A stretch of DNA of 64,000 nucleotides from assembly GCA_973895155.1 (NCBI GenBank), contig OZ316891.1:8061875-8125874 (forward strand), read 5' to 3'. Origin of the DNA: Marsupella aquatica (taxonomy: Eukaryota > Plantae > Marchantiophyta). The notes beneath the pieces were generated by a model. That model was not told where the DNA came from. It worked only from the letters and a program-made list of their open reading frames with translations, and did no database searches. Of this stretch, positions 15,745-39,447 are shown one piece after another. Position numbers and translations under genes: made by a program. The stretch's first letter is position 1; every line of letters starts with the position of its first letter.

Positions 15745-18535
15745 TTTTTTTATAAATTGTTTTCACCCGCGAAAAACCCCACGGGCAGGGCGAACAAGCC
15801 ACATGGCAAACAGACCCCACATCGGGCCCAAACACCACCCAACCAGAGCAAAAGGCCCCTTTTGACAAAGCAACAAGACCACCAGAGAGAGAGACACCCC
15901 TCTGGCAGCAGCCACAAGAAACACATCAACCGGAACAGAGCCGAGTCCCCGACCTCCTATCAGGCCCCCCACTTCCCATCCTGTCTCATGGAGTCCGCGT
16001 CAGCCCCCAGAGAATAAACAGGCCCTACCACTACTGAGCCAAAGCCTACGAAGGCTGTCAATCAAGTCCTTAGCCCGTCGTAAACGAGAGCTTTTCCTAC
16101 CTGGGGGTGAGCCTCTGCTTACAGCATTCAGGCACTCCGCTGTCTCAGGCAGCACCAGGCCAAGATCAAAATAACGTCTGCCCCCAAACTGGAACACATG
16201 GGCATTTCTGCCCAGCCAAAGCAACCACAAAAACTGGTGCAAAACAAAAATCCTGGCAATCTGGATCGGGCCTCTCCCAAAAGCAGAGTCCAGCAGATCG
16301 AGTCATCAGCCCTTGACCTACTGGCAGTCCCAGCTCACGTAAGAAGAGGTGGCTAAGTCCCCAACAGCTAGCCGCATGAACACATCCGAAGAAAACATGG
16401 GGAATGGTCTCCAACACACCGCTGCAAAGTTTGCACTCTCCATTGCTCACCGCGATTTTGCGTGATCTAGCCCCCGTGAAGAGTCCCCCAACGATGGTAC
16501 GCCAGATGAAAGTCTTTCCCCTGGTCGGCAAGTCCGAGCGCCAGAGCTTAGCCCAGCCTGTGTTCCATTCTACTTTCGTCCTAGAAATGGACCAAATCCG
16601 ATTCAAGCGTCCATGGTTTGACCTTTTAGGCCTCAAGAATTCATAGACGTGACAGTTCTCAATCCTAAAGTCTTTCAATCGCTCCGTCTTGTCCGACCAA
16701 ACCCACTATTTGGCATAGAGGAAGTAGTCCGCCCTGCATTCATTGGTGTTCCAGAGGCATTCCAGGAAGGACCGAGCTAAATCTTTGTGCTCTTCAGAGA
16801 ACCCACACAAGTTGTGCCATCGCAGTGGGATGTCTTTCCATCCTCCATCCTCAGGAGACCATCCATCTCCTATAGAGCGCATACCCAATCTTCCACAGAT
16901 GGCCGCAATCCCTGCAACGGCTTCATTTGAGAGGGAGTGAAATCCTGCCATGCAGCACAAGGTGTCGTAGATACTCCATCTCGCCGGTATCCCAGTCATG
17001 CCAGGCTCAAAAGAAAGGTGTGCTCTGACCATCTCCTAGCTCCTCCACAGTCCACTCGTGTATGGTAGACCTGCAAATGATCTCGATGTGCACAACAATA
17101 GTTGATCTTGAAAGGAGTAACGGTTCCTTCTGATTACCTTGTAGTTCCTCAATCCCATCAATGCCAGATTTGCAACTAACATTTTAGACCACTCTAGGTT
17201 TGGGGCGTTAAGGGCTTTTGTAAACCATTGGGAGGGCAGAGCGTCAGAGTGGCTTCTGAAGTCTTTAAATCCCAGACCTCCCTCCATCCGCGGTTGAGCC
17301 ATCTTGTCCCAGGCTACCAAGGGGATCTTCCTACCCCCAGTGGCGTTGTATCCCCATAAGAAATCTCTACTAATTATAAGAGCAATCAGTTTCTTTGCCA
17401 ATCCTACCGAAGCTTTATAGTACATCACATGATAGATCGAAATTGCTTGCAGAATATGCTTAACTAGGAGGGTTCTTCCTGTGAAGAACAGTAACTTGTT
17501 TACCCAGGCAGATAGTCGATTACTTATCTTGTCCAAGCAGAACTTATGGAGCTGCTTTGTGTGCAGCCCCACTCCTAAGGGTGCTCCAAGGTACTTTTGT
17601 ATCTCCCCCTTCTGGCTAATAATACATCCAGTATTAGTGAGCCAGTGTGGAATTTCCTCCATGGCCAGGGGAATCACTACTAACTTTTCTAGATTCAATT
17701 TGGCACCACTAGCCTTCTCGTAGCAATCCAGTGCCATTCTTGTATCCTCAAAGTCCTTCTCTGTTGCCGGGATGAACATTCCTATGTCATCTACAAAGAG
17801 CCTGTAGCAGATCATGAGATCCCCTGTAATTTGTAGTCCTCTTAGCTTTCCTTCCACTATCTCAGCATCCAAAAAATCCATGAGAGGTTGTGTGGAAATC
17901 ACAAATAAGAGAGGTGATAGTGGGCAGCCCTGCCTCACTCCTCGTTCCAAGTGCACTTGTTTTGAAAGGTATCCATTTACCAAAACTCTAGAGGTTGCTT
18001 GAGCTAGCAGCGCTTTAACCAACATTATAAAGCGCCCACTGATCCCAAGCAGGTGCATACATTCCGATATATACTCATGGCATACCCTGTCAAATGCCTT
18101 TTCAAAATCAAGCTTAAGGAACAATGCTTGGCGCTTCTTCTGTTGCACCCAATCGCATGTTAGCATTGCTAGCAAAACATTCTCAAGGATGTGTCGCCTA
18201 GGGATGAATCCCGTCTGTTGAGGGCTGATTATCTTGTGGAGGAGAGGTTTTAGATGCAACGCCAGGATCTTGACAATGATCTTGTACACTGTATTTAACA
18301 TTGTCAGTGGTCTCCAATCTTTTAAGTACCATTTATATATCTGGTTTCTTCGGTATGGATTTGATGATACCCTCACAGATCCCACCGTCAAGTGCCCCTG
18401 AAAGCCAGAATTCCTGGACCATGCCTACTAGATCTTCGCCTATGAATCCCCAACACGCTTTGTACACCTCCACTATCAATCTGTCTGGTCCAGGGGTTTT
18501 GTCTCGGGGCACCAGCCACAATACATCTTTTAATA
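15745..18535 (-). mobile_element. 5'-truncated L1/Tx1-clade LINE (RT and zf-RVT remnant)
   Basis: ORF pieces 18521-18333 (DKTPGPD), 18391-17036 (KDWRPLTMLN, KLDFEKAFDRV, QGCPLSPLLF, FVDD), 17032-16706 and 16678-16166 (CKLC...ETIPHVFFGC). Short A tail near 15745-15751. Frameshifts and stops are present and no TSD was found. Confidence 0.9.
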
Positions 18536-18691
18536 AAAAGAGTGTTTCTTCCTTTAAATTGTTGTTTTGCTTGGATAGTAGGTGTTATATCATATTTTGA
18601 CAATTTTGTAATGTAATGTCTTTTTGTAAATTTAGGATACGCCAAAGAAGAGATACCGATATCTTTTTCTTTAACATTGAGAGTCTGAACA

Positions 18692-20290
18692 ATGTTTTTT
18701 GATGAAGATGAGTTGCGTCAATGTGGATATCATTCCATCACTCCTAAGCCTGGTCCAAATTGTGTGCAAGAACACCCTTCTAAGCAATCTCTAGTGTGGA
18801 AATATTTTGAACGATGTGATACACCTTCAACATGTCATGATGTACGTCAATCGTACCTATCAAAGATGCAAGTATTGTTTAACATCTGTTACTCATCATC
18901 TAACACGAGCAAAGACACATTTGATGGAAAACATTCTAAAAGGGGTTGCGCTCCCTTGCCTATGGCTCTATGGTGTCATCGACTTGGATGTCATCAACAT
19001 AATGTACAAGGTGATAAAAATTTCATCGACCTTAAAATACAAATAAAGGGATGAAACCCATATCTTGCGGGATGTGAGAGGGTGCAAGTCAAGCATTGGA
19101 ACTTCCTATTTGCAAGCATCCACAAGAGGGCCAAACTATGTTGAAATGAAGGATGATACAAATATGAGGGAAAAAGATAGGTCAAGAAATCTTTCAAACC
19201 CGATTATGGATGTCTATCAAATTCCAAATATAACACATTTGGATAAGCTTTGGATAAATTTGGGTACGTCGTTCAATGTTTTCAATAATTATTTTTTAGA
19301 AGAAATCATGAAGACTTCAAAAGGAATTATGAATGATTATTCCCTTCGGACTACTATGCAAAATTTGCGACTGAAACTATTGGAATACAATAAGGGCGAT
19401 CTCATAGAGGACATGACTAAAACTATGAAGGAGACAATTTAACCTTATGGATGTTCTCTTTCTTCAGATGGATGGAAAAACATCCAAAGAGAACCTTTGA
19501 TGAATGTCATGTTGTTGACTTCTAACGATGACTTCTTCTTAGATAGTTGGAATATTGCGCAAATGGATAAGAAAGATAGAAAATATCTTAGCAAGATGTT
19601 GTCAAAATATATGGAGGATATTGGTGCAAATCGCATTATTCAAATTATAATTGATAGAGTACCCGCAAATCGCATAACAAGTTGTGAGATAGTCATGAAA
19701 AAATATTAACATGTCACTTGGAGTTGTTGTGCTGCCAATGTGTTTAATGTATTGCTAAAAGACATGTGTGGTCATAAGCGTGTAGTGGTAGATGATAGTG
19801 GAGAGAATCCATTTCAAAAGATTTTTAAATGCTTGGGGTGGATAGTAAAAGCAGTTTCGTCGTCACAAAATCTTTTCGGCAATATTTGCAAGGAAATATA
19901 CTTACAAAAAACTGTTGAACCTAAATGAAATGAGATTTGCGACCAATTTTTTTATGGCACAAAGAGCATTGGAGCTAAGAGGATCTCTTCAACAGATGAC
20001 CATTGATGATAAATGAAAGTCTTATCGTGATAGACTTCCAGTGCAATCAAAATCAGCTCGGCACATGACGAGGGGAAAGGCAGAGGAACTTAAAGTGTGG
20101 ATACAACAAGATACATTTTGGGCTGAAATGAAGGATATATTGAAATTCTTTACTCCGTTGGTGAGGATGTTGCATGAATTAATGATGATTCACCGCAATC
20201 AGGTTGGTTGTATTGGAGTTTGAAAAGAGGGATTACTCTTCTGAAGGCAAGCATGGAGAAATGTTCATTGGTAATAGAGTTCTTGAAACC
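18692..20290 (+). pseudogene. Decayed hAT-superfamily transposase (BED zinc finger and DUF659-like region)
   Basis: Fragments SLVWKYFE, RCKYC...KTHL (BED finger), GCSLSSDGWKNIQREPLMNVM, DIGANRIIQIIID, WSCCAANVFNVLLKDM and RFATNF, broken by many stops and frameshifts. Confidence 0.8.
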
Positions 20291-20469
20291 AAGATACTAA
20301 AACAAAACATTGTAAACACTAAAACACAAACAAAACAAAAATATTTACTTTAACTCCCCCACTCTAGCTCTCCTTCACTCTTGCTCCTTCCACTCTCGCT
20401 CCTTTCTCCAATCTTGCTCTCTTCCACTTGAAAAGAATGAGAAATGAGAAGTGAAAGGGGAAGTCCTTC

Positions 20470-20710: not shown

Positions 20711-21377
20711 GTGTTGTCGGGATGGAAAATGAAGGAAGGGAAGTGAAACCTTATTTTTGACTTGAAGGTATTTGGTGATGGATTGTGATTTGGGAGAAAC
20801 TTTTATTGAAAGAGGAAAACTTGAAATTGAAAGACAGTAAGACATAAGAGGAATAAAAGAGGAAAGAAATAGCTATGGCTTTGAAAAGGCTTTTGGAGGG
20901 GAATTTTCTCCCATTGACATGTGGCTGATTGTGTGACTTTGAAATTCATAAGGGTCATGAGGGGTATATATGGCACGCATGACAAGAAATAGAAAATAGG
21001 TTTCTTATTTCCAACAATTTTTTTTCCTATTACCAACAAAAAGTTTTGTTACCGGAAAATATGATAATCTAAAAATATCTCCCTAAAAGTCTCATTTTCC
21101 AAAAAAATTAACAATACAACAATTTTTGGCTAGCTTCAAACGATGCTATTACCAGCGCAGGGCGCTAGAAAAAAACAGTTGTCAAAAAAAATAAATTAAA
21201 AGAAAATTTCAAATTGTTTTTAGAAAAAACTACCACCCATTTTTCTATTACCAGTTTCTGTTTCCTGTCGTTTGTAAATACCTCATCATGAGGATGGAAT
21301 GGTGATGTGCACGATAGAGGTTAGGGTGAGAAAAGAAGAGAAACGACCAAACGTGGCGGGTGGGTTGTGGTGGTTAT

Positions 21378-21848
21378 TGTTAGGGAATATGTTTTCCGAA
21401 GAGGTAGGCGAATGAGGAGCAGAAGGATGGTGAATGGACAGGGCAGTTTTTTAGAATTCCAAGGGAGAAATGTTGTGCTAGTGAGAAGCTCAGTGAATGA
21501 TCGAGTGTTGAGAATGGGAAGACTATGGTGATAAGAGTATCAGGATGCCCGAGTCTTGGAAATCTAGGATTGAACTGATCTGAAGTAGAGTTGGGAAGTT
21601 AAACAGGAGTTTCATAAAAGATGTCATCGTGGTGTTGTGGGAAGAAGTTTAGAGGTGAACAATGGAGTTTTGGTGCGGAGTAATGAAAGGCGATAAAGTT
21701 ATGAAACTTTGTGAATGATAGAATTATATTATTCTATGGTGATAAGAGGAAGAGGATTGATCCCAAACAAGACAATGAAAATGCTTGGGGAAATGCTAGG
21801 CATGCGATTGAAGATTTGGAAGATTCAGGTGTTTTCTTAGTGACAGTG
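21378..21848 (+). repeat. Dispersed ~450-bp repeat, copy 1
   Basis: Clearly homologous to 52442-52893. Both copies start TGTTAGGGAATAT and end near ttcttagtgaca. Confidence 0.85.
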
Positions 21849-21939
21849 AAGGATTGGTGTTCATGTCTGAACAAGATTAAATTGTGAAGAGTGAAGGAGA
21901 CATGAGGCAAAGAACCAGGAATTGCAACATGTTAACGGG

Positions 21940-22203
21940 TCAAAGAAGAGAAGCGACAAGTGGACTAAGAAGCCAAGTTCAATAGCGCCCACTACTGATC
22001 GTTGCCATAGAAGAGGCGGAGGCCCTGATCAAAGCGAGAGTGAGCTCCGAATGAGAAGATTGCAGATTGAGTGATGGCAGAATCAGAGCTAAGCGTCACT
22101 GCGCGTCCAATACTATTCCTGAAGCGTCCCACCCGAATGCCAGAAAATGGACGCCACTGATCAAATGTCAAGATTTCAGACGACGCTTCCTGAAGTGTCC
22201 ACC
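21940..22203 (+). mobile_element. Deleted remnant of an element-B-family Ty3/gypsy
   Basis: About 21940-22112 aligns with 45830-46000 (start of the accessory ORF), and about 22115-22203 aligns with LTR sequence 36835-36920, including palindrome copies. Confidence 0.75.
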
Positions 22204-22237
22204 CAAGTCTGACATTTAGAATTATTTTCCTCCCTTT

Positions 22238-22383: not shown

Positions 22384-23457
22384 TATTGTCTCTCCAAGAT
22401 CTGAGCAAGGCTATGGAAAATTGAGGGTACAAGTTGGAAAAAGTGAAGAAAACTCTTGAGAAACTTGAAGAATTGAGACAAAGAAGTAGAAATGGAATGG
22501 GTAATTGAATCTAAAATCAAAACCTGAAGAATGAAGGACAGAAAAAGAGAATTCAGAGAACGAGCAATAAAGCAGAGAATTAAGGACAAAGGAAGAAACT
22601 TGCCAATAGAAGGAGTATTTGATTTGGCTATGCTCTATTAGACTGGAAAGAAACAGACAATTGGGACAACAATTAGGAATTCATAAGAAGAGAGACATTA
22701 AGAAATTGAGAGAGGAGCAAAGAGATCGTCCGAAAGAGAGATAAAGGGAGAACTTAGAAACTCCCAAAAGCAACAACAGCGGAGAATCAAAACATAATTT
22801 TTTAAAGAGAAGTACGACCTTCGGAGACCGTGGACGAGCAAAGCAAAAAGAAACTATTGGAAAACTAAATGCAGGCCTCAAAACAAACAATGCCAACCAT
22901 GAGTGACGAATATACAGCAAAGCTAAGAAAATGAAGCAAAGAGCAAAAATAGAATGCCCAGAGAGCAACCGTGACTCACTATTGCAATAAGGATTTCTAT
23001 CAAAACAAAAAAGAAGGCACTAAGAATGGATGAAAGACGACGAGATCCATAAACACAAAAGAATCATTGCGGAGGCTTAGCCAAACAAAGCAAATGATCA
23101 AACTCGGGAGAAGGGAGAAAAGAAAGGCCCCCAAATAAGAAAGCATCAATCCAATCTACACAACAATTGAGAATTGAGCAGAAGGAGCCAAGAACGATTG
23201 AAATGACTGTAGGAGAGATTAGAGAATGTAACAAAGAAGAATAGATGAGATTAAAATCCTGATTCACAACGAGGACGTACACGGATACGCTAAAAGATAA
23301 CCAACCACATTCTAAACACCCGGTACAAGAAAATTAAGGACAACAGAAAATTTCAGAAATTTTATAAGGCAAGCCAGAAGAAACAAGAGATAGAAAAGAA
23401 AGAAGAAATGAAGAGATAGAGGAGAACAAGCTATCGATACCCTACCGTTGCGTAGAT

Positions 23458-25162
23458 CGTGATGCCTAGCCAGGAATCACTAGGCCAGTTAAAATGGTAA
23501 AACCGAGAGTGTACCCTGAAAACACATTAGCATAGTAACAAAAACAAGGAAAATATAAACAATTAAGGGTGACCATGGAACCCAAGTCGATCCCGGAAGT
23601 AAGGACGCCATGGTTAGGAACACGATTAGGGTTAGGGCGCGCTAAGTGCCGGCGGCTATGGGTAACCAACGGGAAGGAAGACCAGGCAAGGGGGGGTAAG
23701 GACCGATCACAAGTAATGGCGGCTCATTTGAGAGCACAAACTAAGCAGACAATTACAAGAAGCCAACTACAGTCAACTGCTTAGGCACGCACTTTGGGCG
23801 GGAGCAAATACCGACTATCAACTCAAGGAGGGTATGAGCAACGTCAATCAAGTTGCTCATTTATAGGGATGCTTGCTCGAACGGGCAACTAAGTACATTG
23901 AGACCTGTGAGGAGGAAGAATCGGAAAGGGCAGCTCGAGAAGGGCAGGAGCTCGCTCGACTATGGGAACTCCTACTGTCAATCAGCTTGAGACTTCTATT
24001 CTTCTATTCTGTGAGAATAGAATCGTCGACATCCGAGAAGCCATCAATTGCTGCAACAACATACACTGCTAGCTTAAGGGTAGCACGGAGGTGTGGACAA
24101 AGGCAACCGTGCTCAGAGAAACATCCACAATAGCCGCCATGAAGAGGAAAGGGGCCAACAACAAAGAGGCCACCCCTACGAAGAGAACGAGGTTGGCGAC
24201 ACCAAGGAAGCCAGCCAAGCAGGGGAAGAGGAGGCAAGGAGAAGCCGATGAAGAGGAGGTCAACCCCATCAATGTCGTTCCAACAAGGGATGACACTTGG
24301 AGGGGCTGGGCGGCGACCCTCCCCAAGGAAGTGCAATTACACTTTGCACGAGAGGAGGATGCATGCTTTACGGCTATGCAGACTCGGAAGTACCAGGGCT
24401 TTATGGCCAAATCTGGCTTGGAAGCCTTCATGAAATTACCGTGGTTGAAGTCGGAGGTGCCGGATTTTGACTTATTAGAATTTGTGGGATCATGGGATCC
24501 CGAGACAAATTCCACAAGGGTGTATGGGAAGGATTTCTATCTCACTCCCCAAGTGATTGCCGAAGTGTTTGGCTTGCCGATGGGCAATAAGACCAAAGTA
24601 GGTACCTGGAAGACCTTGCCAGACAAGGAGTTTCGATTGTTCCCAAGGCCATCAACGAAGAATGGCTTCTTCTGGACACCTGCACCAACCCGCACATTGG
24701 GGAGATGATCAATTTCTTGCGGGTAACCATGCACTGCAACCTGCCAAGGCCAGAGATCGTCAAGGCACAGGTCTACCTGGCGGAGAGGCCAGACCCAAGC
24801 CGAGACTACTATAACGGATACTTGCTCACCCAACTGAAGAAGATCTTGAAGGAGGAACAATAGGTGATCGGCCAGGGAAGCATATCCCAACTTGGCTATC
24901 ACATGCCGTTGTTGTGCCGGTATGCCCGAAGTAAGATCTTTGCCCCAGTACTTCCCCTACAGGCAAGGGCACCCAAGGAGGTTTCGGACCGGAGGCCGGC
25001 AGCAGAGAAACCAACCAGCCCGACAGTCCTATGATCAAGCAAGTGTTTAGGCTGAGGACGGAAAATTTGCCGATGCAGATACAAGGCATGCAGAATCTTC
25101 TAAAATTGCTGGAGAAGGAAAAGAAGGTTGCGACGGCAATGGCACCGGTACAGGACACTGCT
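23458..25162 (+). mobile_element. Solo LTR of the element-A family, segment 1 (5' part, degenerate accessory ORF)
   Basis: Homologous to the reverse complement of 29771-28045. Homology starts exactly at the (T/C)GTGATGCCTAG LTR start and does not extend into the PPT or pol. ORF fragments at 23569, 23873 and 24091 match the 818-aa ORF. Confidence 0.8.
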
Positions 25163-28100
25163 TGTGGTGCGTCCCATGGCTCCTTGAACCCAAGAAACCC
25201 CCCAGCTCAAGCCGATTCCCGCAGGTTTCGTGCTTGGCGAGGCCGTTTCCGCGGCTTAGCGGCATGGGACGCTGCTAACCTTCTACTACTACTATTAACA
25301 TTTTACACACATATACTGGACAGATCCTTCATCGGGTCATGAGATACATAGCCGGCCTAATATAGGCCTTCCCCTGTCTTCCCCTGTCTTCCCCTCCGTC
25401 TTGTTAGGTATGTTTGGATTCCGCCGCCGGAATGATCCCCAATAGGCTTGGTTAAGCCGCTAAGACCTCTCTTAGCTCGACACATCCAACTCTCACTCCC
25501 CTACTTACTTTCCTTCCTTCTGTTGATGTGGGCACTCTTCACACAAGTTAATGCGACACACAAATAGCAAAATGACTCATTCTGACTGAGTCATACCATG
25601 CACTTGCCATACAAACAGTACATCTCATACACAAGTTCTGCGAACTAAGCCGTGAGGCCAACTCTATTCAGCTCTTAGGCATGAAGAAACATGAATATAC
25701 ACAAGGGTCACTGTATGACTAACCGAGAGCTTCTCGTACTACTTGATCCCAGCCCGGCTGGTGCAAACTAAAAACTTGCTAAAGAAGAGGCACTGAGCTC
25801 CCCGCTGCCCAGGTACTTATCCTGGTAGTGGATCCGCCATTCTTTGCATCGTAAGCCTAATCTACTTAACAGTAATCTACTTGCCTGAATCTACCTATGT
25901 ACAGCAAGGCAGGAGCACAAGTGTTGCTCCTACCAGTGGGACCGCAATCCCACTAAGCTAAGTGTCAGGGCCGCTCCTGGTTCTGATCCTAATCCTAAAC
26001 GTGGAGATCCGCGCCCGCCCTGCCCACTCACGCCTCCTCCCTCCACGTCCGCCCTCCCTAAAAGGAACGGCGCCCTTGCACCGTCACGACACCGGTGGTG
26101 GATCCTCAATGGACGCCCCCAACGCTTCCTCCTCAGCCACTGCCGTTGGCCCGCCTACTGACAGATTACCTGCCCTTGACCGAGTCAACTCTCCCTCGGC
26201 CTGACTGGGTCCACCTTCGGCTTCAGCCTCGACACCGGCCTCGGCAATACCCACGGCTTCGGCTTCAGCCACTCCCTCGGCTTCGGCCTCCCCTTCCCCT
26301 AGGGTAGTTGGATCCTTAGCCGTGACCCTGTCTGGGGTCGGTGCTGGGTCTACCTCCTTGATCACCACGGCCTGTGAAGTCGTATTACTCCTTGACCCTG
26401 AAGGTTTCCGCTTCTTCTTCGTTGGTGGCTCGACAGCTGGTCCCTTCCCCTTCCCACTTACTTCCGGCACTGGTGCAGGTGGCGCGGCTTGTCCTTCGGC
26501 AATTACCACCCCTGGTAACTGGTTTGTCCCAACGGGAGATGGACCTGCTGCAGCTAAGCATTTAAATACTGCGGCTTGTTTCTTCAGCCGCTCTGTTTGG
26601 TTGTCGGCCCGCCGCTGTAGGTTCTCCATCTTCCTCGTGATTTCCTCCAACTCCTCTTGGGTTTCATCCAGGTCCTTATGTGCCCCCTCCAGCTCGTTTT
26701 TGGCCTCCTCCTGCTCCCTGTGGGCTTCCTCCAATTCCTTCTTCAAGGTAGCCCTCTCCTCCCGGGTTGCTCTTAGCTCCTTGTCGAGCTCTGCAATGAT
26801 GACAGACTCCATCTGGTTCATCTTGGCGTAAGTCTGTTCGAGCATCTCGTCCTTCTCCCTTAGGTCGGCCTTGAAGCTGGCCGTCAGGGACGCAAGCTCC
26901 TGCTGCAGCGCCATAATCCCTTGATAGGATTTCCCTAACTCGGCCTCCTTCTGCTCAAGGGCTCCGCGGATTTTCTTGAGCTCCCCTTTCAACGTCCATT
27001 CCTTTCTTTGGGTCTCCGCCATGGCTCGGCTGTTGGCTGTTATGTGGGCCTCCTCTGTATTCTTCAGCTCTTGCTTCCACTTCTCCCTCTCTTTGATCGT
27101 GTCGGCCAACTCTTCCTGCGTCTGAGTCAGTTTATCCTTGATATGCTGATTATCAGCCTGCGCGGTGTCCAACTGCCCCTGCATGATGTTCAGCTCATGT
27201 CATTTAATCCGCAGTTCATCTTGGGCTTTCTTGGCCGCCCCTAGATCTTCAATCTCGGCTTCCATCCTCCTAAGCCGCCGAATGACCTCGTCCTTCTTGC
27301 TTCTCTCTAAAGCCACCGCTTCTTCTAATTGGTGCTTCTCCAACTGCTCCCTATGGAAAAAGGGTCCTACCTCCAACTCCTCTCCAAAGATGCCGAGCGC
27401 AAGTTCCCCACACATCTCACCATACTCCATGGCTCTATTCTTAGCGTAGGTGGAGTAAGTAGAAGTGATCGGCATCGCCCATCGCGGCCTCTGCTCCCAA
27501 GCCGTCCTGCGGATCTCTTCAATCGTGGCTAGAGGTTTGCTTCCTTTTTTGGCTAGCCGCCTGATGTCCTCCGGCCAATCTCCTCCTGGTAAATCCTTTT
27601 CCTTAGCCAGGGCGGCCTCCTCCTCCTGCTTGATTCGCTCCTGAAATTCCTGCACCGTCTGTTTTATGCCGTCGAAGCTCGGGGGAGCAACATCTGGTGG
27701 GGGAGACTCAGGGCTACTCTGCTGGTTGGGGTCCCCTCGCACTACCCTTGGAAGTGTGGGGACAAACCGGCCACAGGTCCTTACTCCTGGAACGTGATGG
27801 TCCGACCCATAGCCGGAATTATCATGGCTGCAGTCCTCCACCGCCTCCTCTACCTCTTGGACGTCCGGCTTCTCCCTCTCCTCTTCGTCGGTAGGAGCTT
27901 CAGGCAATTCTGCCTCAGATTCGGAGCTTGAGGTTCCCACGTACATTCGAACACCTGGCTTGGATTCCGGCCTGATTCTCTCCTTGTCTCCAGCAAAGGG
28001 GTTTTCTCTTGTGAACCGGTGTAGGCCTACCTTTGTATTAGTGTCCTGCATTGTTGCCGTTGCCGTTGTTGTTGTTGTTGCCAATTTCTTTTCTTTCTCC

Positions 28101-29771
28101 AGTAGTTTCAGCAGACTCTGCATGCCTGGTTGCTGCATCGGCAAGTCCTCCTTCCTGGGCCTAAACACTTGCTCGATCTCAGCCAACGGCCTCGGCGTTG
28201 GAGCTTCCTCGGGTGCCCTTACCTGCAGGGGAAGTACCGGGGCAAAAGTCTGACCTCTGGCATACCGGCACAACAGCGGCATGTGATAGCCCAGCCGCGA
28301 CACGCTCCCCATGCCGATTACCTGCTGCTCCTCCTTTAAGATCTTCTTCAATTGGTTGAGGAGGTACCCGTTGTAGTCCCGGCTTGGGTCTGGCCTTTCT
28401 GCCAGATAGACCTGTGCCTTGCCGATCTCTGCCCTCGGCAAGTTACAATGCATGGTCACTCGCAAGAAGTCGATCATCTCTCCTATGTGCGGGTTGGTGC
28501 AGGTGTTCCGGAAGAAGCCATTCTTCGTTGATGGCCCGGGGAACGACCGGAACTCCTTGTCAGGCAAGGTCTTCCTGGTATCAACTTTGGTCTTATTGCT
28601 TATCGGCAGGCCAAACACTTCGGCAATTACCTTGGGAGTAAGATAGAAATCCTTCCCATATATCCTCGTGCAATTGGTCTCGGGTTCCCATGACCCCACG
28701 AATTCTAATAGGTCTGACTCCGATACCTCCGGCTTCAGCCATGGTAATCTTACAAAGGCCTCCAAGCCGGATCCGGCCATGAAGCCTTGGTACTTCTTGG
28801 TCTGCATGGCCGTAAAGCATGCATCCTCCTCCCGTGCAAAATGTAGTTGCACCTCCACCGGTAGGGTTGCCGCCCAGCCCTTCCAGGTGTCATCCCTGGT
28901 TGGAATGGCCTTGATGGGATCGACCTCCTCCTCTTCGGCTTCTCCCTGCCTCCTGCTCTGCTGCTCGGCTGGCTTCTTTGGTGCCGCCGACCTCGTTCTT
29001 TTTGCCGGGGTGGCTTCATCGTTGACGGCTCCCTTCCTCTTCATCTCTGCTGCCGTGGAGGTTTCTCCTAGCACCGTTGCCTGGGTCCACCTTTCCGTGC
29101 TACCCTTTAATTCCCAGTGTATGTCGTTGCAGTTCTTGATGGCCTCTCGGATGCCGACGACGCTGTCTTTGCAAAACAGAAGATCGTCGAGTTGATTGGA
29201 AGTAGGCGTCCACAGGAACTCGTCCTTGATGAGTTCGCCTCCTAAGAAAGCCGTCTTCTGCAGCTCCCACAATCGAGCGAGCTCCTGCCGTTCTCGAGCT
29301 GCCCTTTCTGATTCCTCGTCCTCGTAAGTCTTGATGTACTCAGTTGCCCATTCGAACAGGCATCCCCAGAAATGTGCCGCTTGATTGACGTTGCTCATAC
29401 CCTCCTTAGGTCGATCGTCGGTATCTACTCTCTCCCCGAGTGCTTGCCTAAGCAGCTGACAGTAGTTGGCCTCCCGTAGTCGTCTGCCTAGTTCGTGCTC
29501 GCAAATGAGCCACCATCTTCTGCAAGCGCTCCTTACCCCTCTCCTCCGCCGGTCCTTCTTCCCGTTGATCCTTCCTAGCCGCCGACGCTTAACGCGCCCT
29601 AACCCTAATCGGGTTTTCACCCTCAGCCTTACCTCCGGCCTCGGCCCGGGTTCCATGGTTGCCCCTAATTGTTTATATTTTCCTTGTTTTGTCCCTATAC
29701 TAAGGTGTTCCTAGGGTGCCTTCCTGCTTTACCCACTTAACCGGCCGAGTGATTCCTGTCTAGGCATCACA
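25163..29771 (-). repeat. 3' LTR of element A, about 4.6 kb, containing a long ORF
   Basis: Begins TGTGATGCC directly after the PPT and ends ...ACCACA. The same two boundaries delimit the solo copy at 23458 and 51016. Confidence 0.72.
26084..29656 (-). CDS. Accessory ORF of element A (Athila-ORF1/plant-transposon-like domain, acidic linker, coiled coil), one in-frame TGA at 27200-27202
   Basis: The 818-aa and 366-aa ORFs are in the same frame, separated by TGA plus 5 codons. Motif GLEAFVRLPW...LLEFVGSW...FYLTPKVIAEVFGLP, followed by a long E/K/Q/L-rich heptad region. Confidence 0.75.
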
Positions 29772-32700
29772 TAGCTCCCCACTTAATTGTGAAGCGTCCT
29801 CGCGAACAACTTCATCTTCGTCCATATAGTATTTCTTGAGGCGGTCATAATGGATGCGAACTGGATATACCTCTCCCGTAATGTTGGCCAATTGTACGGA
29901 GCCATTGGGGAACATCATGGTTACTCTAAAGGGTCCTAACCAGCGAGTGTAAAGCTTTCCTAGAAACCTACTATACCTACTGTCATAAAGTAGCACAAGA
30001 TCACCGGTATGAATACTAACTACTTTTAACCTTTTATCATACTGCTGCTTCATGATATTCTGTCTATATTCTACTCTCTCGGCTGAAATCATTCTCGCTT
30101 CCTCTAAAGCTTCTAACCTATATTCTTGCTCCTTTAGGCTCTCCTCCGCTGAGGCTCTTTCCTCAATTGTAACTTGAAATGTCGGTATCTCAAGTTGCAT
30201 GGGTACCAGGGCTTCTTGTCCAAAGGTTAAGAAGAAGGGTGTATGACCGGTAGTGGATTTATAGGCAAGATTGTAAGCAAAAACAGCAGCAAACAATTTA
30301 TCATCCCAATCGAGTTTGTTCTGAGCTGCTGTCTTGTTCAATATCTTTCCTATAATTCCGTTTGCTCGTTCTGTCAACCCGTTTGCCTTTGGATGGTAGG
30401 GAGTAGTAGGCCTATGTTTAACTAAATACTGCTCATTTAAACGACTAATTATATCATTCAAAAAATGGGTTCCTCTATCACTAACTAATTCTAGGGGTGC
30501 TCCATACCTGGTGAAGATCTGCTCATACATGAATCTAGCCGTAGTAATTGCATCATCCTTCGTTGTTGGTCTGGCCTCTACCCATTTAGTTGCATAATCC
30601 GTAGCCAGGATTATGTACTTGTTCCGTCGAGGGTGGGTCAGTGGTTTCAGAGGTCCAATGTAATCAATACCCCACTTCTCGAATGGTGCCAGAGGTAGAA
30701 TAGGGTGCAGTGGATGCCTGGTGGACGCCCTTGGTCCTCCCGCTCGTTGACAAGGATCGCATTGTTTGATAAACTGATAGACATCTTTGTGCAAGGTGGG
30801 CCACCAGTAACCGGCATTTAATATCTTCTTAGACGTGGTTACTGGGGCAAAATGTCCTCCGGCCTCCTCTCCATGCATGGCCCGTAGGACTCGTTTTACC
30901 TCTCTCTTTTCCAAACATCTTTGAATCGTGCCGTTGATTCCATGCTTGTGCAGTATGCCTTTAATGCACTGATACTGTCTGACCTTCCGCACAAAGACTG
31001 CGGCTTGCTCTCGGCTTAATCCTGGCTGTAATCTGGAAGTGCTGAGAAATTGTAAAATCTCAGGGTACCATGTACCAGCTATTTCCACAACGAATAGCTC
31101 CTCGTCGGGGAATCGATCATCGATGCAATCCGTAGCAGGTTTACCTGTGATCCTTGAAAAGAAGTCGGCATTGGCATGTAACTTTCCCGGCTTGATCCTC
31201 AGCTCATAGTCAAACTCCTGTAATAGCAAAATCCATCTTGCTACTCTGCCTGTAAGGTCCGGCTTATTGACTAGGTACTTCAAACTTTCGTGATCAGTAT
31301 GAAAGATTACCTTGTACCCTAGTAAATAATGCCTAAACTTTTTACAAGAATAAATGACTCCTAATGCTTCTCTTTCCGTGGTAGAGTAGTTCCGTTCGGC
31401 ATCGGCAAGCTGACGGCTTGCGAAGTATATGGGATGGTCCCTTCCTTTCTCATCCAACTGACTTAGTACTGAGCCAATACAGAAGCCCGAGACATCTACA
31501 AAAACATGAAAATCTTTGTTCCAGTCCGGTGCTATCATGATTGGGGCCTCTACTAACATCTGCTTCAATTCTACCACCGCTGTGACTCGTTCGGGTGTGG
31601 GTTCGAAGTCTGCTCCTGCCTTGAGCATATTGGTTAATGGTAAAGCTAGCTTGGCAAAATCCTTGATGAACCGGCGATAGTAACCAATGCATCCCAAGAA
31701 GGATCTTACATCCTTTATGTTCTTAGGTTGCATGATATCTAGCCATACTGCTAGCTTACCTTTGTCAATCTCAATGCCCTTCCTTGATACCTTGTGACCT
31801 AGTAGCACCCCCTCGGTTACTGCAAAAAAACATTTATCTGGGTGTAACTTGAGACCCACCTCTCTACATCTCATGAAGGTTTTCCTGAGGTATTTAGCAT
31901 GTTTCGATGCCTTCCCGAATACTGCAAAGTCATCAATGAAGATTTCCATGAACTTTCTCAAGTAATCATGAAAAATGTTCACCATTAATCGTTGGAACAT
32001 AGCTGGTGCGTTGCAGAGTCCAAACGGCATACGATTGAAGACATAGATCCCCCATTCCGTGATGAAGGCCGTCTTGATTTGGTCTTCCTGCCGAATCCTG
32101 ATTTGGTTATAACCAGAGTATCCATCCATGAATGAATATAGTTCATGACTGGCTACCATGTCTAGTACCATATCAGTAAACGGTAAAGGAAAATGGTCTT
32201 TTAATGTTGCTTCATTCAGCTTCCTGTAATCCTGACAAACCCGGATCTTGGGTTTACCATCGGGTCCAGCTTTCTTGGGAACTATCACAATTGGAGACAC
32301 CCAGTCTGAATGCAGGACTGGAGTGATGAATCCAGCTTCCACTAGTTTGTCGATTTCTGTTTTGACCAGCAGGGAATACTTCGGGTTCATCCTTCGAATT
32401 GGTTGTCGAAATGATTTGGCTCCTAACATGAGATCAATTCGATGTTCCCCTAGTGTTGGATCTACTCCCTTTAGATCTTGGTGACTCCATGCAAACACAT
32501 CCTGAAATTCAATCAATAAGTCACTGATCTCTTTCTCGAGCTCAGGTGCTAGGTTTCTCCCTAAGTTCAGTTCTCTTCCCTCTCCTAAGTCGAGCTTCCG
32601 ATATTGCCGTGCTTGGATCATATTAATCTGCTTCTTCAAATTCGGGTCCAGTTCGGCTTCCAGTCTCTCTAATCTCATACCTCCATAAACTGGAATCTCG

Positions 32701-33026
32701 GCTGGACTAGCCGAGTCGGTCCCTTCCTTGGTGTCCATAGATTGTCCCCTTACCGGTCTATTCGGTTTTGAATTAGTGGTCGGCTCCCCTTCCTGCCTTG
32801 GCTCTGGATCATGTCTGTCCATCTCATCCACCTCTTGCTCCTGAGAGTTAGGCCGCTGTGCTCTCTCGACTTCTAATAGGGCCTCAATTTGTTCTGCCCT
32901 CGTAATCGGCTTGTATGCCGATCCCTTGGTATTTAATTCCTTGCCGATGATCGATGGCGTTGTGAACCCCGTCGGCTCTGCCACAACGCCTGCAGAAAAT
33001 CCACTGTCCCTGCTACTGCTCCCCAC
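29760..33026 (-). CDS. pol of element A (RT, RNase H, integrase), uninterrupted 1088 codons
   Basis: WVSPIVIVPKK, DYRKLN, MPFGLCNAPA, FIDD; RNase H HVFVDVS and NYSTTEREAL; integrase GGHF...CDPCQR, WGIDY, SDRG, ERANG; WLGPF motif. No chromodomain. Confidence 0.93.
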   Translation of the reverse strand: MGSSSRDSGFSAGVVAEPTGFTTPSIIGKELNTKGSAYKPITRAEQIEALLEVERAQRPNSQEQEVDEMDRHDPEPRQEGEPTTNSKPNRPVRGQSMDTKEGTDSASPAEIPVYGGMRLERLEAELDPNLKKQINMIQARQYRKLDLGEGRELNLGRNLAPELEKEISDLLIEFQDVFAWSHQDLKGVDPTLGEHRIDLMLGAKSFRQPIRRMNPKYSLLVKTEIDKLVEAGFITPVLHSDWVSPIVIVPKKAGPDGKPKIRVCQDYRKLNEATLKDHFPLPFTDMVLDMVASHELYSFMDGYSGYNQIRIRQEDQIKTAFITEWGIYVFNRMPFGLCNAPAMFQRLMVNIFHDYLRKFMEIFIDDFAVFGKASKHAKYLRKTFMRCREVGLKLHPDKCFFAVTEGVLLGHKVSRKGIEIDKGKLAVWLDIMQPKNIKDVRSFLGCIGYYRRFIKDFAKLALPLTNMLKAGADFEPTPERVTAVVELKQMLVEAPIMIAPDWNKDFHVFVDVSGFCIGSVLSQLDEKGRDHPIYFASRQLADAERNYSTTEREALGVIYSCKKFRHYLLGYKVIFHTDHESLKYLVNKPDLTGRVARWILLLQEFDYELRIKPGKLHANADFFSRITGKPATDCIDDRFPDEELFVVEIAGTWYPEILQFLSTSRLQPGLSREQAAVFVRKVRQYQCIKGILHKHGINGTIQRCLEKREVKRVLRAMHGEEAGGHFAPVTTSKKILNAGYWWPTLHKDVYQFIKQCDPCQRAGGPRASTRHPLHPILPLAPFEKWGIDYIGPLKPLTHPRRNKYIILATDYATKWVEARPTTKDDAITTARFMYEQIFTRYGAPLELVSDRGTHFLNDIISRLNEQYLVKHRPTTPYHPKANGLTERANGIIGKILNKTAAQNKLDWDDKLFAAVFAYNLAYKSTTGHTPFFLTFGQEALVPMQLEIPTFQVTIEERASAEESLKEQEYRLEALEEARMISAERVEYRQNIMKQQYDKRLKVVSIHTGDLVLLYDSRYSRFLGKLYTRWLGPFRVTMMFPNGSVQLANITGEVYPVRIHYDRLKKYYMDEDEVVREDASQLSGELCDA
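29772..29787 (-). other. Polypurine tract of element A
   Basis: Minus strand gaggacgcttcacaATTAAGTGGGGAGCTA|TGTG parallels the element B PPT context ...TTTGAGTGGAGGGCTA|TGTG. Confidence 0.75.
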
Positions 33027-35896
33027 TTAGCCATTTCATCCAATTGGTCTACATCCTTTACTTCCTCCGGAATTGCAGCTAAGAAGGTGGATTCTATTGT
33101 AAAGCAGTCCTCGACCTCTTCGTCTTCTTCTTCCAAGTCACCTTCCATTGGTTCTTGCCATAATCCGCTGGGGGGTACCTCTGGTCCAAAGACACCTTCT
33201 TCGGTTAGGTCAGTGAGGCATTCTAACCAACGTACTTCATCGGCTGACTCCAGTCCACTGTCGTACCCATCTACTTCCCTTATGCTTTTCCTACGGTCAT
33301 CCTTAGTGTCCCAGGATACCGTGATAGAGGGGGTCCCGAAAGTGAACTGCTTTTTACCCCAATCTTCTATTACCTCGGCTAGGTACAGCCATGGCCTACC
33401 AATCAATAGCCGGAATGACGTAGGATTTACCGGCTTCATTACTACATAGTTAATGCTAAAGAAGATACCTCCTATCTCTGTCTTGATGCCGGTTAACACT
33501 CCCGTAGGAATGACCTGATATCCATTGGCCATGTTCAACACTCTTCCAGTCATCTCCGGTGTTAGACCCCACCCTTTTGCTGTTGAATCAATCATAATAC
33601 ATACCCCTGATCCTCCATCGATGGGTACCCGTAGTAATAATTTTCCTTGAATCATTAATGGTAATGCTGGGGCTCCTTGATCTTCTTCTATCATTAGTAC
33701 GTCGGATCTGGTTGCTACCTTGGGTAATCTCGGCTTGCCGAGAATAGCCTTCCTTAATTGCTTCCGGAAATACGGGCTATTTTTCAATAGTTGACCTACT
33801 GTTGCCGAGACTCTAGATTCTAGTACATCTTTAGCCAGGTCATAGGGAACAATCGGCTTCTCTTCTGGTGGTGTTTCCGTCTTGGATTCGGCCAGTCTTG
33901 CCACGCTAGTCTCCACAGCTGTTGGGTCTTCCGAAGCAAACAATGCTTTTGCTCGTTTTACATCCTTGGCAATGGCTTCGGTATTCTCCAGGGTTTAAAA
34001 TTCTCTTAGTTGTTCCTTAACACTAGCCGTAACAGAGGGGTAGAACAACTTAGGATGATCTCGATTGAAGTCGCTATCTTGTGAAGGATTGGTTTCACTG
34101 GTGGGCTCATGGCTTACCTGTATTGCCGGAGCCCTCCCTTCTCCTTCTGTTGATGTTGACGAAGAGTCGATCCTTTCCTCCGTAACCTTCCCTTTATTTT
34201 TGGCCAGCCCATCCCACCTTCCCTTCCTTCTGGTAGATCGAGTAGAGACCCGGTAGCAATCATGATCTAAATCCTCCTCTGAGAAGGTTGATAGGGCTTC
34301 GGCCTCATCAGCAGATGGTACGAACTCTGCCTCGGCATCCTCTTGCCATCCTAGTTCGATGTGGTTGATTTGAACTCCTCCGGGGGTAGTACCTAGCGGT
34401 AAGATCTTGATCGGCAAAAGCTTATGATTTGCGGCCAGGCCTGCCAACCAAGTAGGACATTGCCCTAGCATATGACCTTCCTGTCGGCATCCCATACATA
34501 GCTGAGCTGGTTGTCCATCACCCTGTTTGCGTGCATTCGGGCATTCTCTAGCAAAATGGCCAGATTGACCACAATTATAGCACGCCGCAAATCTTTGCAC
34601 ATTCGGCCTAGGAGGTACTGACGGGTTCTGAATAATCCAAGGATACATCTCTCCTGGATTGTTCCTTAACCCTGACCATAGAGATGCAGGTCTGTTGGAT
34701 AGGTCTCGTGCTCCAGTCTCACTGATGCCGAAAACACTATCAGCGGCATCTCCTAAAAAGTACTCTACTTCTCCCTGACATGGTCAGATCTCGGCCACAT
34801 GCCGAACATGATTAGTATTAAGCTTAGGACACGCATCTTTATGGTGTCCGGTTTTATAACATAAGGCACACCATACAGAGCTATCCTCCTGTACTACCTT
34901 CTTCTTTGGTTTTACCTCTGCAATGATAGCCTTAAGTTGCTCGGTAAGGGCTACGATGTTATCTGGTGGCTTAGCCTCCATCTTGACTTTCGTCTTCCCT
35001 CTCCTTCTGCCCTTCCTTTTCCTAGTTTTTTCTTCTTCAGAACTAGAAGATGACTCACTCTTGCTACTCCCACTATCCGAGCTTGACTTATCACTTCTAG
35101 ACTTCTTGGGATGTTTCTTCTTCTTATCTTTTTTCTTATGGGGTGATCCCTCCTCTGATGAGGAACTCTCAGACTTAAGCTGTTTCTTCCGGCTTGTGAT
35201 ATCTGCATTAATGTATAATTGAATATCCTTAATTGCTTCGGCTAAAGTCTCCGGGTTCTCCTTCCTAATTGCAAAACTCATCTTCTGTGGCAAAGCATTC
35301 ACCAACCATTGAAGTTGCATACCTTCAGATGCATTGGTCTTTGTACGTCTTACCAGTTTCTGAAAGCGTTGCAAGAACTTCCTGAAGGATTTGTTCTCCT
35401 TGAACCGAAGTTGTCCCAACTTCAGCACTGCTAGTTCTGAAGTTCCAATGGGTCGAAACTCCTTAACAAAGAGTGTTTTGAAGATATCCCAGATGGCTTG
35501 ATCTTCCACATCTAATGCTCTGTACCAAGGCCTAGCCTCACCCTTGAACAGGCCGGGAAGAATCTGCATCTTGATGGCCGATTCTCCATTTGCTGCAGCG
35601 GTTTCCTCGAAATCATCCAACCATTCGTCCGGATCCTCCTCTCCTCTCCCATGAAATGCCTTGTAATGTATGCGCGACCGCTGGCTCAATCTGGTCCCTG
35701 GCCTCTCGTCTGGCCGTGCCTCTGGTTCCCCCATGTCGGTTGGAGACTCACTTCTCCTTACCGACTCTTCTTCTGGTATGTCTTCTTCGACGCCACTTCC
35801 AGTTTTGGAGCTACCAGCTCTTTCTGCCCCTCTCAGTCGCTGTGTATCATGCCACCCGGTGAGCTGCTGCAGTCGAGCTCTCTCCCGTTGAATCAC
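32933..35896 (-). pseudogene. gag-protease of element A with two in-frame stops (34784-34786, 33995-33997)
   Basis: Retrotrans_gag-like FHGRGEEDPDEWLDDFE; three CCHC knuckles (CALCYKTGHHKDAC, CYNCGQSGHFAREC, CMGCRQEGHMLGQC); protease PIDGGSG...LLIGRPWL. The three ORFs are in one frame. Confidence 0.88.
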
Positions 35897-35915
35897 TCTT
35901 TCTTCCCTCGGCGTA

Positions 35916-36362
35916 AGGTCTACCTTAAGGAAACAGAGGTCTACCTTAAGGAAGGAATTGGAGGAAGCCTAGAAGGAGCTAGAGAAGGCGCGCGGGGACC
36001 TAGACAAAATGCAGGAGGAGTTGGAGGAAAGCACACGGAAGTTGGAGAACTTACAACGGCAAGCCGACAACCAAACGGAGCGGCTAAAGAAACAAGCCGT
36101 ACTATTTAAGTGCTTGGCCTCATCAGTTCAAACTCCAATTGTGGCAACAAAGTTGCCAGGGGTAGTACTGGCCAAGGGACAAGCCGCGGCACTCGCACCG
36201 GTGCCGGAGGTAAGTGGCAAGGGGAAAGGACCAGCTGTCGAGCAAGGGAAGAAGAAGCAAAAACCTTCCAAGTCAGGGAGCAACACGGCTTCTCAAGCCA
36301 CCATGACCAAGGAGGAGAACACGGCACCAGCCTCAGGCAAGGTCACAGCAGAGGATCCAACT
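35916..36362 (+). mobile_element. Solo LTR of the element-A family, segment 2 (coiled-coil part of the accessory ORF)
   Basis: ORF 36009-36398 (QEELEESTRKLENLQRQADNQTERLKKQA...GKGKGPAVE) matches the 366-aa ORF. It is cut by element B. Confidence 0.85.
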
Positions 36363-38079
36363 TGTGGAAAGGAGACTTTTGCTGAAACACGACCATAAGA
36401 GAAAAATCTGAATCGTTTCAAACTTTTTGAGCAAAAACGACACTTTCTGAAGCGTCTACTTTCAATTTGGCGGTTAACTCACTTCATTCTAACTAAGGAC
36501 GCTTTCTGAAGCGTCCCCAGTTACAAAGCCAATAAACCTCAAGACAGCTGAGGCGTCCATGCGTGCTGCCAACCAGATGCAACCCCCTTAACCACGACGC
36601 TTTTTGCGCCGTCCTTCACCGATACCACGGAACAGAAGACGCTTCGTGAAACGTCTATTCGAACCAGACACCGGACGCTTTAAGACGCTTTCTGAAGCGT
36701 CCGCTAACCCCAAAGTCCGATGAGACGCTTTCTGAAGCGTCCACATGAGAAGTGATGCCTCGACTATTCGGCCGTGTTCGAAGACAAGGCAGAATCGATG
36801 CTTTCTGAAGCGTCCGCCAAGACAGACTTCGCCGCTTTCTGAAGCGTCCCACCTGAAGGCCGGAAGACGGACGCCGCGACCAAACCCTCAAAATTCAGCC
36901 GACGCTTTCTGAAGCGTCCATAAAAGTCCTTTGTAGTTTTGGACGCTTTCTGAAGCGTCCACTATGTTCCCAACACTTAGAAAAAGTTTCAGTTTTTGCA
37001 CTTTTATAACACCGTGCCACTTTTACTGATTTATTTGAGGCACTTAGAGACCTCAGAAAAGTCTGAAACTTTACCAGCATAGAGATTATATGTAGTAGAG
37101 TACTCTAGAAAAGTCTCAGCTCATTCCGACTTTTAGTTTAGAAGTTAAAATTAGATTAACACCACTGTTTATTAGTTTTACCGGAAAGCACCGACGCTCT
37201 ACAAAGCGTCCACTAAGTCTCCAATGCATTTCTTTATTTCTTTTAGGATTGTCTTTTAGATATTTGAGGTTTGAAAAGTCATGCCTTTTCAGTTAAGGGA
37301 ACCTTTACTTATAAAACCTCATGTTTTTTCCATTCGAAAGGAGGGGGGGACAATTCCAATCAGACTTCTGTTAGTTTCCCTCCTTCCATTTTAACAAGAG
37401 AAGTCTTGTATGGAAGTAAAACTTATGTTTGAATTTATGAATTCAAGAAATTTCTTGATACTTGAATTCAGTTACAAACTTCTGTGACTTACATTGAATT
37501 CACTGCTAGGCTTGCTTGAAGGGTCAAGATTCGCTAGCTAATTCAAGAGTTGTTGTTTGATATGTGAGAAGTAAAGTTTGGTTCTCAGAGTATTCAGTAC
37601 CGTTACTTTGTTTATGGAATATGATTTAGTGTTTGACAGAATTGGGTATCGCTGATGTCAAACCATGTTGCCGGCATCTTAAGTCATATCATTACATTTG
37701 TAACCAGAGCAGTACTTGTTTAGCAAATTGGAAATTCCTTATCATGCAATTTTATTTAGTCAGGAGAGAAATTAGTGAGTTATGAGACTTGTTTTATGTC
37801 TATTCTAAGACCATAGTCCTTTTTGAAGGAGTGGCAATAGCTAATCAGAGTTTTCAGACCATAATTGACTCTCTCTTGACTCATAAGACAGAAGTTTATT
37901 TACTTTGGTGTTTTGTTTATTTGATCTTTTAGTGAGAAACAAGAAATCTATGTGCTGAGAGCTTTAGATTACTCAGAGAGATAAATTCATTCAATTCTTT
38001 CCAAATCTATTCTTAAAGGGATCGTATTCCGAGTCTTTATGTAAAAAGTGTTCCTTTTTGTTCTTTTGGCTATACGACA
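36363..38079 (+). repeat. 5' LTR of element B (1717 bp)
   Basis: TGTGGAAAGG...TATACGACA. About 13 substitutions versus the 3' LTR by eye, and no indels seen. Confidence 0.96.
36439..36960. repeat. Interspersed palindrome array (GGACGCTTTCTGAAGCGTCC) in the 5' LTR
   Basis: Copies near 36439, 36497, 36596, 36638, 36684, 36724, 36797, 36831, 36901 and 36941, plus an outlier at 37193, separated by non-repetitive spacers. Confidence 0.9.
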
Positions 38080-38088
38080 TATGATTTT

Positions 38089-39420: not shown

Positions 39421-39447
39421 AAGTTTTACTATTGCTAAGAATGAGGT

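Follow-up and report, generated by a model that had tools for sequence, protein, structure and literature searches.

Element A and its accessory gene

The window analysed here comprises 64,000 nucleotides of the liverwort Marsupella aquatica (contig OZ316891.1, positions 8,061,875 to 8,125,874). It contains a retrotransposon on the minus strand, element A, whose long terminal repeat (LTR) appears to enclose an accessory gene of about 1,100 codons. Read along that strand, element A consists of gag with zinc knuckles (33995-35915, broken by stops and cut away at its 5′ end), a protease region followed by pol (reverse transcriptase, RNase H and integrase, assigned with Pfam; 29760-33994), an LTR-start module (29772-29806) and a unit of 4,609 bp (25163-29771), taken as the 3′ LTR. 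No primer-binding site (PBS) or 5′ LTR remains. The overall order is gag-protease-reverse transcriptase-RNase H-integrase, and the succession of its last three domains is that of Ty3/gypsy elements. The added RNase H of Tat elements was sought with Pfam, and no second RNase H family was found in the 1,088-residue pol or in the protease open reading frame (ORF); no chromodomain was matched. 'Tat Z' groups lacking the additional RNase H (aRH) exist (PMC13468544). Among named proteins, those closest to pol belong to liverworts: Calypogeia at 64-65% over part of the query length, and Riccia at 40-56%. As regards Athila membership, the quick integrase tree of A and its relatives carried no labelled references.

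The unit begins directly behind a polypurine tract (PPT): ATTAAGTGGGGAGCTA occupies 29787-29772 of the minus strand and TGTGATGCC follows from 29771 (coordinate check). Together with a conserved GTTCGCGAGGACGCTTCAC motif, this PPT forms the LTR-start module, which also opens the LTR in two related elements from metagenome contigs (L002 and L013). The unit runs TGTGATGCC...CGCACCACA, and its far end, ACCACA at 25163, was located by self-comparison of the window and a coordinate check. TG stands immediately after the PPT in pol-linked copies, the far end is CA and the termini are inverted over a short distance (TGTGATGC against the reverse complement of the end TGTGGTGC, 7/8). The pol frame reads through the PPT and stops at 29762-29760, 12 nt within the unit, inside which no terminal repeat was found. 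An initial annotation, made from the sequence alone, had described this succession of PPT, unit start and ACCACA end 4.6 kb further on, and it was borne out by self-comparison, global alignment and the coordinate check. It had also placed a TATAAA ahead of the ORF in both copies of the unit. The box is indeed present at +95 of the LTR (29672-29677, minus strand), where it is a candidate promoter of the ORF, and is kept at 23554-23559 in the second copy (copy B, described below).

The accessory ORF lies in a stop-to-stop frame of 1,208 codons (29710-26084) with a single TGA at 27202-27200 (codon 837). The ratio of nonsynonymous to synonymous substitution rates (dN/dS) between A and B was 0.15 in the core (codons 271-540, 267 codons compared), 0.24 in codons 105-222 and 0.45 in the C-terminal part; read in the remaining frames, the core gave 0.69 and 1.81. 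Judged by these ratios, a comparison proposed in the initial annotation, the ORF in 25163-29771 is under purifying selection. Codons 19-104 were near-neutral (dN/dS 0.65; mismatches 21/18/18 by codon position), which makes Met105 (29398) the likely start of a protein of about 1,100 residues (26084-29398, minus strand). The TATA box lies only ~16 nt ahead of the first ATG and ~280 nt ahead of Met105. The annotated ORF of ~1,200 codons with one TGA thus stands as a frame, and the likely protein is the shorter one from Met105. A proline-free charged segment (26681-27373, minus strand) probably forms a long coiled coil, as its composition suggests; coiled-coil Pfam matches were all sub-threshold. 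No transmembrane segment of the kind expected of an env-like protein was found (maximum 19-residue Kyte-Doolittle mean 0.82).

The core of the ORF matched no Pfam family directly. At E<=0.001, a full-library search with the core gave 19 relatives. Ten of them were looked up, and the two with names both come from Calypogeia fissa. Profiles link the ORF to those of element C (a second retrotransposon in the window) and of metagenome loci (profile A1 against profile A3: probability 98.2, E = 4e-14; A ORF against profile A3: E = 2.3e-8). Direct BLASTP between the A and C ORFs gave only E = 0.06, and their homology rests on the profiles. The ORF of locus L013 in turn matches PF20167 at E = 6e-5, and that of L011 falls in PF20167/PF03078 clusters of the Atlas (0.92). 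Linked stepwise through the profiles of its relatives, the A ORF may be regarded as a remote member of the Transposase_32/ATHILA ORF-1 accessory family. Word-based homologue searches with the ORF gave zero matches among proteins of 403-1,285 residues and, in a weak search, among those of 1,379-3,935 residues only. No relatives were found among viral contigs and no matches at E<=0.001 in a viral structure library, and a PDB sequence search returned three chance-level rows with no sequence-level match.

A fold could be predicted for the conserved globular domain (28181-28900, minus strand; dN/dS 0.15). Among 48,161 chains, VANC21 was the best match to an AlphaFold2 model of the A core (Z 8.4, root-mean-square deviation 4.3, 201 residues aligned; next row 2.1). 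An independent model of the L011 ORF (predicted local distance difference test, pLDDT, 86) also placed VANC21 first of 48,161 chains (Z 7.5, root-mean-square deviation 4.0, 202 aligned; next 4.1). VANC21 is encoded by VANDAL21 Mutator-like DNA transposons (PDB 9lnj/9lnk). On these models, the A protein would resemble it and the plant mobile domain (PMD) proteins MAIN and MAIL1 in fold over ~200 residues and in combining a globular domain with a coiled coil. VANC is a structural homologue of MAIN/PMD and forms multimers through its coiled coil, like the Athila domain (PMC13547354).

Copy B, contig depth and the ends of the unit

Copy B lies on the plus strand in three pieces, 23458-25162, 35916-36362 and 50219-51016, the first beginning at the first base of the LTR with no PPT ahead and the last ending ACCACA. 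It opens with CGTGATGCC, not TG. The initial annotation had reported a second plus-strand copy with the same two ends and no homology to PPT or pol, and this was confirmed: global alignment paired B with the A unit from first to last base (~80% overall; ~0.70-0.94 identity per well-aligned 200-nt bin), and BLAST of the flanks of B against the PPT and the pol end found nothing. Missing from B are ~1.3 kb at the site of A (A 28086-26757) and ~0.38 kb (A 26109-25728). The gap at the site of A and the loss of the 5′ LTR, PBS and gag start from A may both stem from one deletion after A inserted into B. The flanks on the two sides of B are equally A-rich (A 0.47/0.48).

Public contigs of five sequencing runs were aligned over 24700-36500; depth ratios were obtained for runs X1, X2, X3 and X6 and a fine-scale view was made at 25163. 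Summed depth was compared between 12 bins of the unit and eight gag/protease bins, all internal bins numbering 15. The unit exceeded gag/protease 3.65-fold (X1), 4.1-fold (X2), 3.65-fold (X3) and 3.53-fold (X6), and in X1 and X2 each of its bins was deeper than every internal bin. The terminal bin, which corresponds to a possible short LTR, stood at 0.83-1.13 of the rest of the unit in all four runs, with no doubling. With summed depth as a proxy, dosage is therefore above that of the internal region and even along the unit. A ratio near 4 would correspond to about two copies, solo or partial, for every full element, provided that depth tracks copy number.

The far end was equally marked. At 25163 the summed depth fell from >279,000 to ~1,500 in X1 and to 0 in X3 and X6, and ten X1 loose ends lie there (flank agreement only 0.46). 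PBS-like ...GCGCCAAAAA abuts 25163 (TTTT-TGGCGC after ACCACA) in two X6 contigs (agreement 0.57) and one X1 joint. This site behind 5′ copies resembles the PBS of C, L002, L003 and L008; the base following TGGCGC in the A family differs from that in the TGGCGCC of those elements. A tRNA-Asp PBS a few bases past the LTR is a mark of Athila. No tRNA genes were found in the 64-kb window. At the other end, one X6 contig aligns over 29502-29771 and continues for 106 unlike letters. GATC/GANTC sites are absent at both unit boundaries and have a density of 8.5 per kb inside and 9.4 per kb outside the unit. Depth, the PBS-like sequence at the far end and the start motif shared with the 1-kb LTR of L002 all support the annotated reading of the 4.6-kb unit as an LTR. 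In eight X3 contigs with loose ends at 29765, the PPT side and the first LTR bases are common and the sequences then diverge; another high-copy family with the same junction is the likely source.

Related elements and other features of the window

Relatives were collected by a metagenome contig scan with integrase alignment, which gave 80 loci. The module GTTCGCG..GGACGC..CAC-PPT-TG is common to A and its relatives; the pattern occurs in 11/80 loci, the ORF-domain profile in 24/80 and both in nine, several of whose ORFs had been used to build the profile. The other 15 of the 24 ORF-bearing loci had no match to the junction pattern and were left unclassified. The module stands between pol and the ORF, as in A, in seven of the nine (L003, L007, L008, L009, L010, L011 and L014), and behind the ORF, as in element C, in two (L002 and L013). 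L002 runs pol, extra PPT, ORF, module, 1.0-kb LTR, PBS and gag, and C is built alike. A second junction behind the ORF is found at 62 nt in L013, 120 nt in L002 and 96 nt in C; none was found in A (920 nt), L007 (876 nt) or L011 (1,106 nt). The TGTGGGA behind the pol-proximal PPT of L003 and L008 recurs in inverted form, TCCCACA, at their PBS-adjacent end, and the pol-proximal site is thereby connected with the end of the LTR. L012, the nearest relative of A, has the same base-exact module-PPT-TG junction. A complete LTR was seen in none of the metagenome relative contigs. TATA-like boxes at ~+340 to +460 precede the ORF in four of seven relatives checked. An LTR-internal ORF appears, on these junctions, to be common to a wider set of related metagenome elements, which goes beyond the initial annotation.

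An integrase tree was built by a quick method from 32 of 82 sequences and 13 proteins (L080 was omitted for short coverage). Elements with the motif before the ORF formed two groups with support, joined in a fork that the tree leaves unresolved; this requires two changes, a number equally low in 94/500 shuffles; a single origin is thus neither shown nor excluded.

Element C (36363-50213, plus strand) serves as an internal control, with 1.7-kb LTRs 99.2% alike, a target-site duplication (TSD) CAACT and its accessory ORF (45960-48395) ahead of the PPT. Right behind pol it has an extra PPT (45463-45485) without a TG end, identical over 14 nt to the working PPT; similar tracts occur in L001, L002, L004, L005 and L013. 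Each C LTR (36363-38079, 48497-50213) contains seven to eight copies of a near-palindromic 18-20-bp motif of the GGACGCTT-TCTG-AAGCGTCC type, and a related copy lies at 22116-22209. The motif copies in the C LTRs are a candidate target array for the VANC-like accessory protein of C itself. In two relatives, direct repeats of 150-220 bp (74-81% alike) lie in the non-coding tails of the long LTRs (L008:180-677, L011:5440-5843).

Just behind the ORF stop of A lies a PPT-like module without a TG end (26040-26075, minus strand), which resembles the pol-proximal extra PPT of L002 and L004. It has a partial PBS likeness, and the two modules of A seem order-swapped relative to L002, a post hoc lead; B is deleted there. 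Elsewhere in the window, two 88%-identical Copia-type LTR-like repeats (21372-21850 and 52437-52894) have B between them, the second interrupting a Copia gag-like coding sequence (~52050-55400). A near-intact long interspersed nuclear element (LINE; ORF1 of 729 and ORF2 of 1,032 residues, plus tail) occupies 56170-62351 on the plus strand, and a truncated copy related to it (64% DNA identity) lies at 16166-18424 on the minus strand. Decayed coding-like sequence at ~18600-20300 looks, by eye, somewhat like a hAT-type DNA transposase.

Interpretation of the LTR and its gene

Element A is best classed as an Athila/Tat-group Ty3/gypsy retrotransposon, and 25163-29771 is very likely its whole LTR. 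The overall explanation, that a selected accessory gene of predicted VANC/PMD fold lies within this 4.6-kb LTR and likely counters host silencing, is assigned a probability of about 0.8. In an ordinary Athila-like layout, by contrast, the PPT at the pol end would be an extra one, the ORF internal, the LTR confined to the terminal 320 bp, with TGTGTCGAG at 25484 as its start, and B truncated or non-autonomous. A purine tract followed by TG is present at 25525-25476 (minus strand), unsupported as a boundary. Extra PPTs ahead of the accessory ORF occur in Athila4 and Calypso (PMC2829016), and in C, L001, L002 and L013; abundant non-autonomous derivatives could also raise the depth of the ORF. The extra PPTs of C, L002, L004 and L013 lack a CTA-TG end, however, and the module of A is the true LTR-start module of L002. 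The initial annotation had named a short terminal repeat starting near 25484 as what would refute a coding LTR. The terminal depth shows no such excess, no loose ends fall at 25484 among those listed and one X6 contig bridges it, while B starts at the equivalent of 29771 and contains the short segment only once, with no terminal repeat. This layout is therefore judged very improbable. Scarcely any weight is given to the idea that the unit is a separate mobile cassette (a foreign solo LTR or a unit of non-LTR type) that landed beside the PPT of A. The unit does occur without pol in B, it is deeper than the internal region and no record listed over 24700-36500 bridges 29771/29772. The junction is nevertheless base-exact with the conserved module-PPT-TG of relatives including L012, the runs with the unit also contain A gag and pol across all bins, and the far end adjoins PBS-like sequence; even a foreign solo LTR would be a coding LTR.

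Several observations weigh against a gene-bearing 4.6-kb LTR. Element A being 5′-truncated, the window holds zero two-LTR copies, and no single contig record covers a whole element. The ORF is broken in both copies (the stop at codon 837 in A, several breaks in B), so that no intact gene was seen. The tail of the A unit has no AATAAA and no second TATAAA. Evidence for an independent 5′ start at 29771 consists of B and one contig. For B, the annotated solo LTR with flanks TAGAT (23453-23457) and CAGAC (51017-51021) stands in that both LTR ends are present and internal sequence is absent. The flanks, a possible decayed TSD, are imperfect (3/5 identical, two transitions) and only modest evidence, since an equally good match is seen in 3.9% of 5-mer pairs drawn at random from the flanks (P 0.039). 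Summed contig depth is not copy number, and against all internal bins the unit reached only 2.41 in X3 and 0.94 in X6, where some reverse transcriptase/integrase bins are very deep, probably from other families. Position 25484 is bridged by no more than one of 32 listed records (31-letter rule), and X1 depth drops past 25510, near the edge of the examined stretch. The libraries look like proximity ligation: of 17 joints checked, 14 have a GATC/GANTC site no more than 6 nt from one end or both. Contig joints over 24700-36500 (for example 29157-33677 and 29771-26362) had been considered as deletions or nested copies and were dropped, most lying on such sites.

For the protein, a VANC/PMD-fold chromatin protein countering host silencing is predicted from the models at just short of even odds. 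The mean pLDDT of the A model is 68. In Foldseek, VANC21 was its top row at E = 0.14 (probability 0.85), and the L011 model had no VANC21 row among those listed. The similarity is middling (Z 7.5-8.4, identity 8-14%). Unlike VANC21, the A gene lies in a retrotransposon LTR, and VANC targets are tandem motifs, whereas no motif array was found in the non-coding LTR parts of A. VANC proteins demethylate their own VANDAL elements (PMC5735166); MAIN and MAIL1, with the PMD domain, promote silencing (PMC5418596). The missing array and the silencing role of MAIN and MAIL1, together with the fact that a fold shows no function and that the functions of plant accessory ORFs are reported as undetermined (PMC7264820), give a reasonable though lesser share of belief to a coding LTR whose protein is no anti-silencer. 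Such a protein could be a structural or targeting factor (chromatin tethering of integration, particle or RNA handling), or the LTR position could be a neutral accident of PPT use. The sole solved match, however, is an element-encoded anti-silencer bound to DNA, the globular domain plus coiled coil parallels VANC, the low hydropathy excludes an env-like protein and the layout is kept in two well-supported element groups. As to the transcript, it is mildly favoured that the ORF lies within U3, with genomic RNA starting from a second promoter in the 0.9-kb tail. Genomic RNA might instead start at the +95 TATA too, leaving a U3 of ~125 nt and the ORF in R/U5 at the RNA 5′ end, with gag-pol expressed via splicing or internal initiation. 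This less favoured arrangement fits the only TATAAA of the unit, kept in B, and the TATA-like boxes of the relatives; it would require a minus-strand strong-stop DNA as long as 4.5 kb and would set a 1,100-codon ORF before gag.

In the preferred reading of 25163-29771 as a coding LTR, plus-strand synthesis would be primed at the PPT at the pol end, and the sequence from 29771 to the PBS-adjacent end would be copied to both ends of new insertions. Given both boundaries and standard LTR replication, the gene is present in both LTRs and stays in any solo LTR. Each insertion would thus carry two gene copies, of which LTR-LTR recombination would leave one; B would be a decayed example of the solo copy so formed. 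Transcription of the gene probably relies on the TATA box at +95, with its transcript ending in the 0.9-kb tail. The layout probably arose from the internal-ORF state of C, L002 and L013 once the LTR start came to precede the ORF, the direction being unrooted. The protein would be a nuclear DNA or chromatin binder that multimerises by its coiled coil and lifts silencing of its own family.

Athila/Tat (OTA) elements whose extra ORF follows pol in sense orientation (Athila4, Calypso, Bagy-2) and the aRH-less liverwort 'Tat Z2' resemble A in the gag-protease-reverse transcriptase-RNase H-integrase order. A also shares with Athila/Tat the TGGCGC-type PBS a few bases past the LTR and a sense accessory ORF of the Transposase_32/ATHILA kind. 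In Athila/Tat the extra ORF lies between pol and the 3′ LTR (PMC7264820), whereas in A it lies behind the LTR start. Extra ORFs are placed on either side of gag-pol, in most cases between pol and the 3′ LTR (PMC7264820, PMC6317226), and non-chromovirus LTRs reach ~5 kb (PMC6317226); the accessible parts of these two articles make no mention of LTR-internal genes. Diaspora, Retrosat2 and Ogre have multi-kb LTRs, as in A, and no LTR-internal gene is reported for them in the parts accessible. The PPT of Diaspora is 128 bp from pol, close as in A, and unlike A it has no extra ORF (PMC1142308); Retrosat2 has an ORF0 of unknown function. A literature search on LTR-internal ORFs and bryophyte Athila structure found no plant case in partly accessible sources, with subscription journals largely outside its coverage. 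Protein-coding sequence within the LTR, duplicated at integration as proposed for A, is represented by sag of mouse mammary tumour virus and nef of human and simian immunodeficiency viruses, both in U3. Unlike A, these are vertebrate retroviruses, with genes of a few hundred codons, LTRs of ~1 kb or less and unrelated proteins. Long LTRs, internal accessory ORFs and retroviral LTR genes are thus already known; what appears to be new, judged by the literature covered, is a probable coding LTR in a bryophyte lineage of the Athila/Tat group.

LTRs are regarded as devoid of coding sequence, and the accessory ORFs of plants as lying in the interior of the element; a selected LTR gene of 1,100 codons departs from both views. 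Since at least seven related elements are laid out alike, a solo LTR can amount to a gene cassette, and such ORFs may be put in the wrong place by LTR finders and classifications. The window contains a natural control in element C, with a homologous ORF in the ordinary position. The predicted VANC21-like fold offers a concrete, testable function for the long-unexplained accessory proteins of the Transposase_32/ATHILA type. More tentatively, a bryophyte retrotransposon lineage may have moved a VANC-like anti-silencing gene into its LTR, so that each insertion would double the gene, and solo-LTR formation, the principal way in which the host deletes such elements, would spread self-contained promoter-gene cassettes that go on de-silencing the family in trans. 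If this is true, counter-defence of the VANC/PMD type would be an ancient retrotransposon trait, going back to early land plants.

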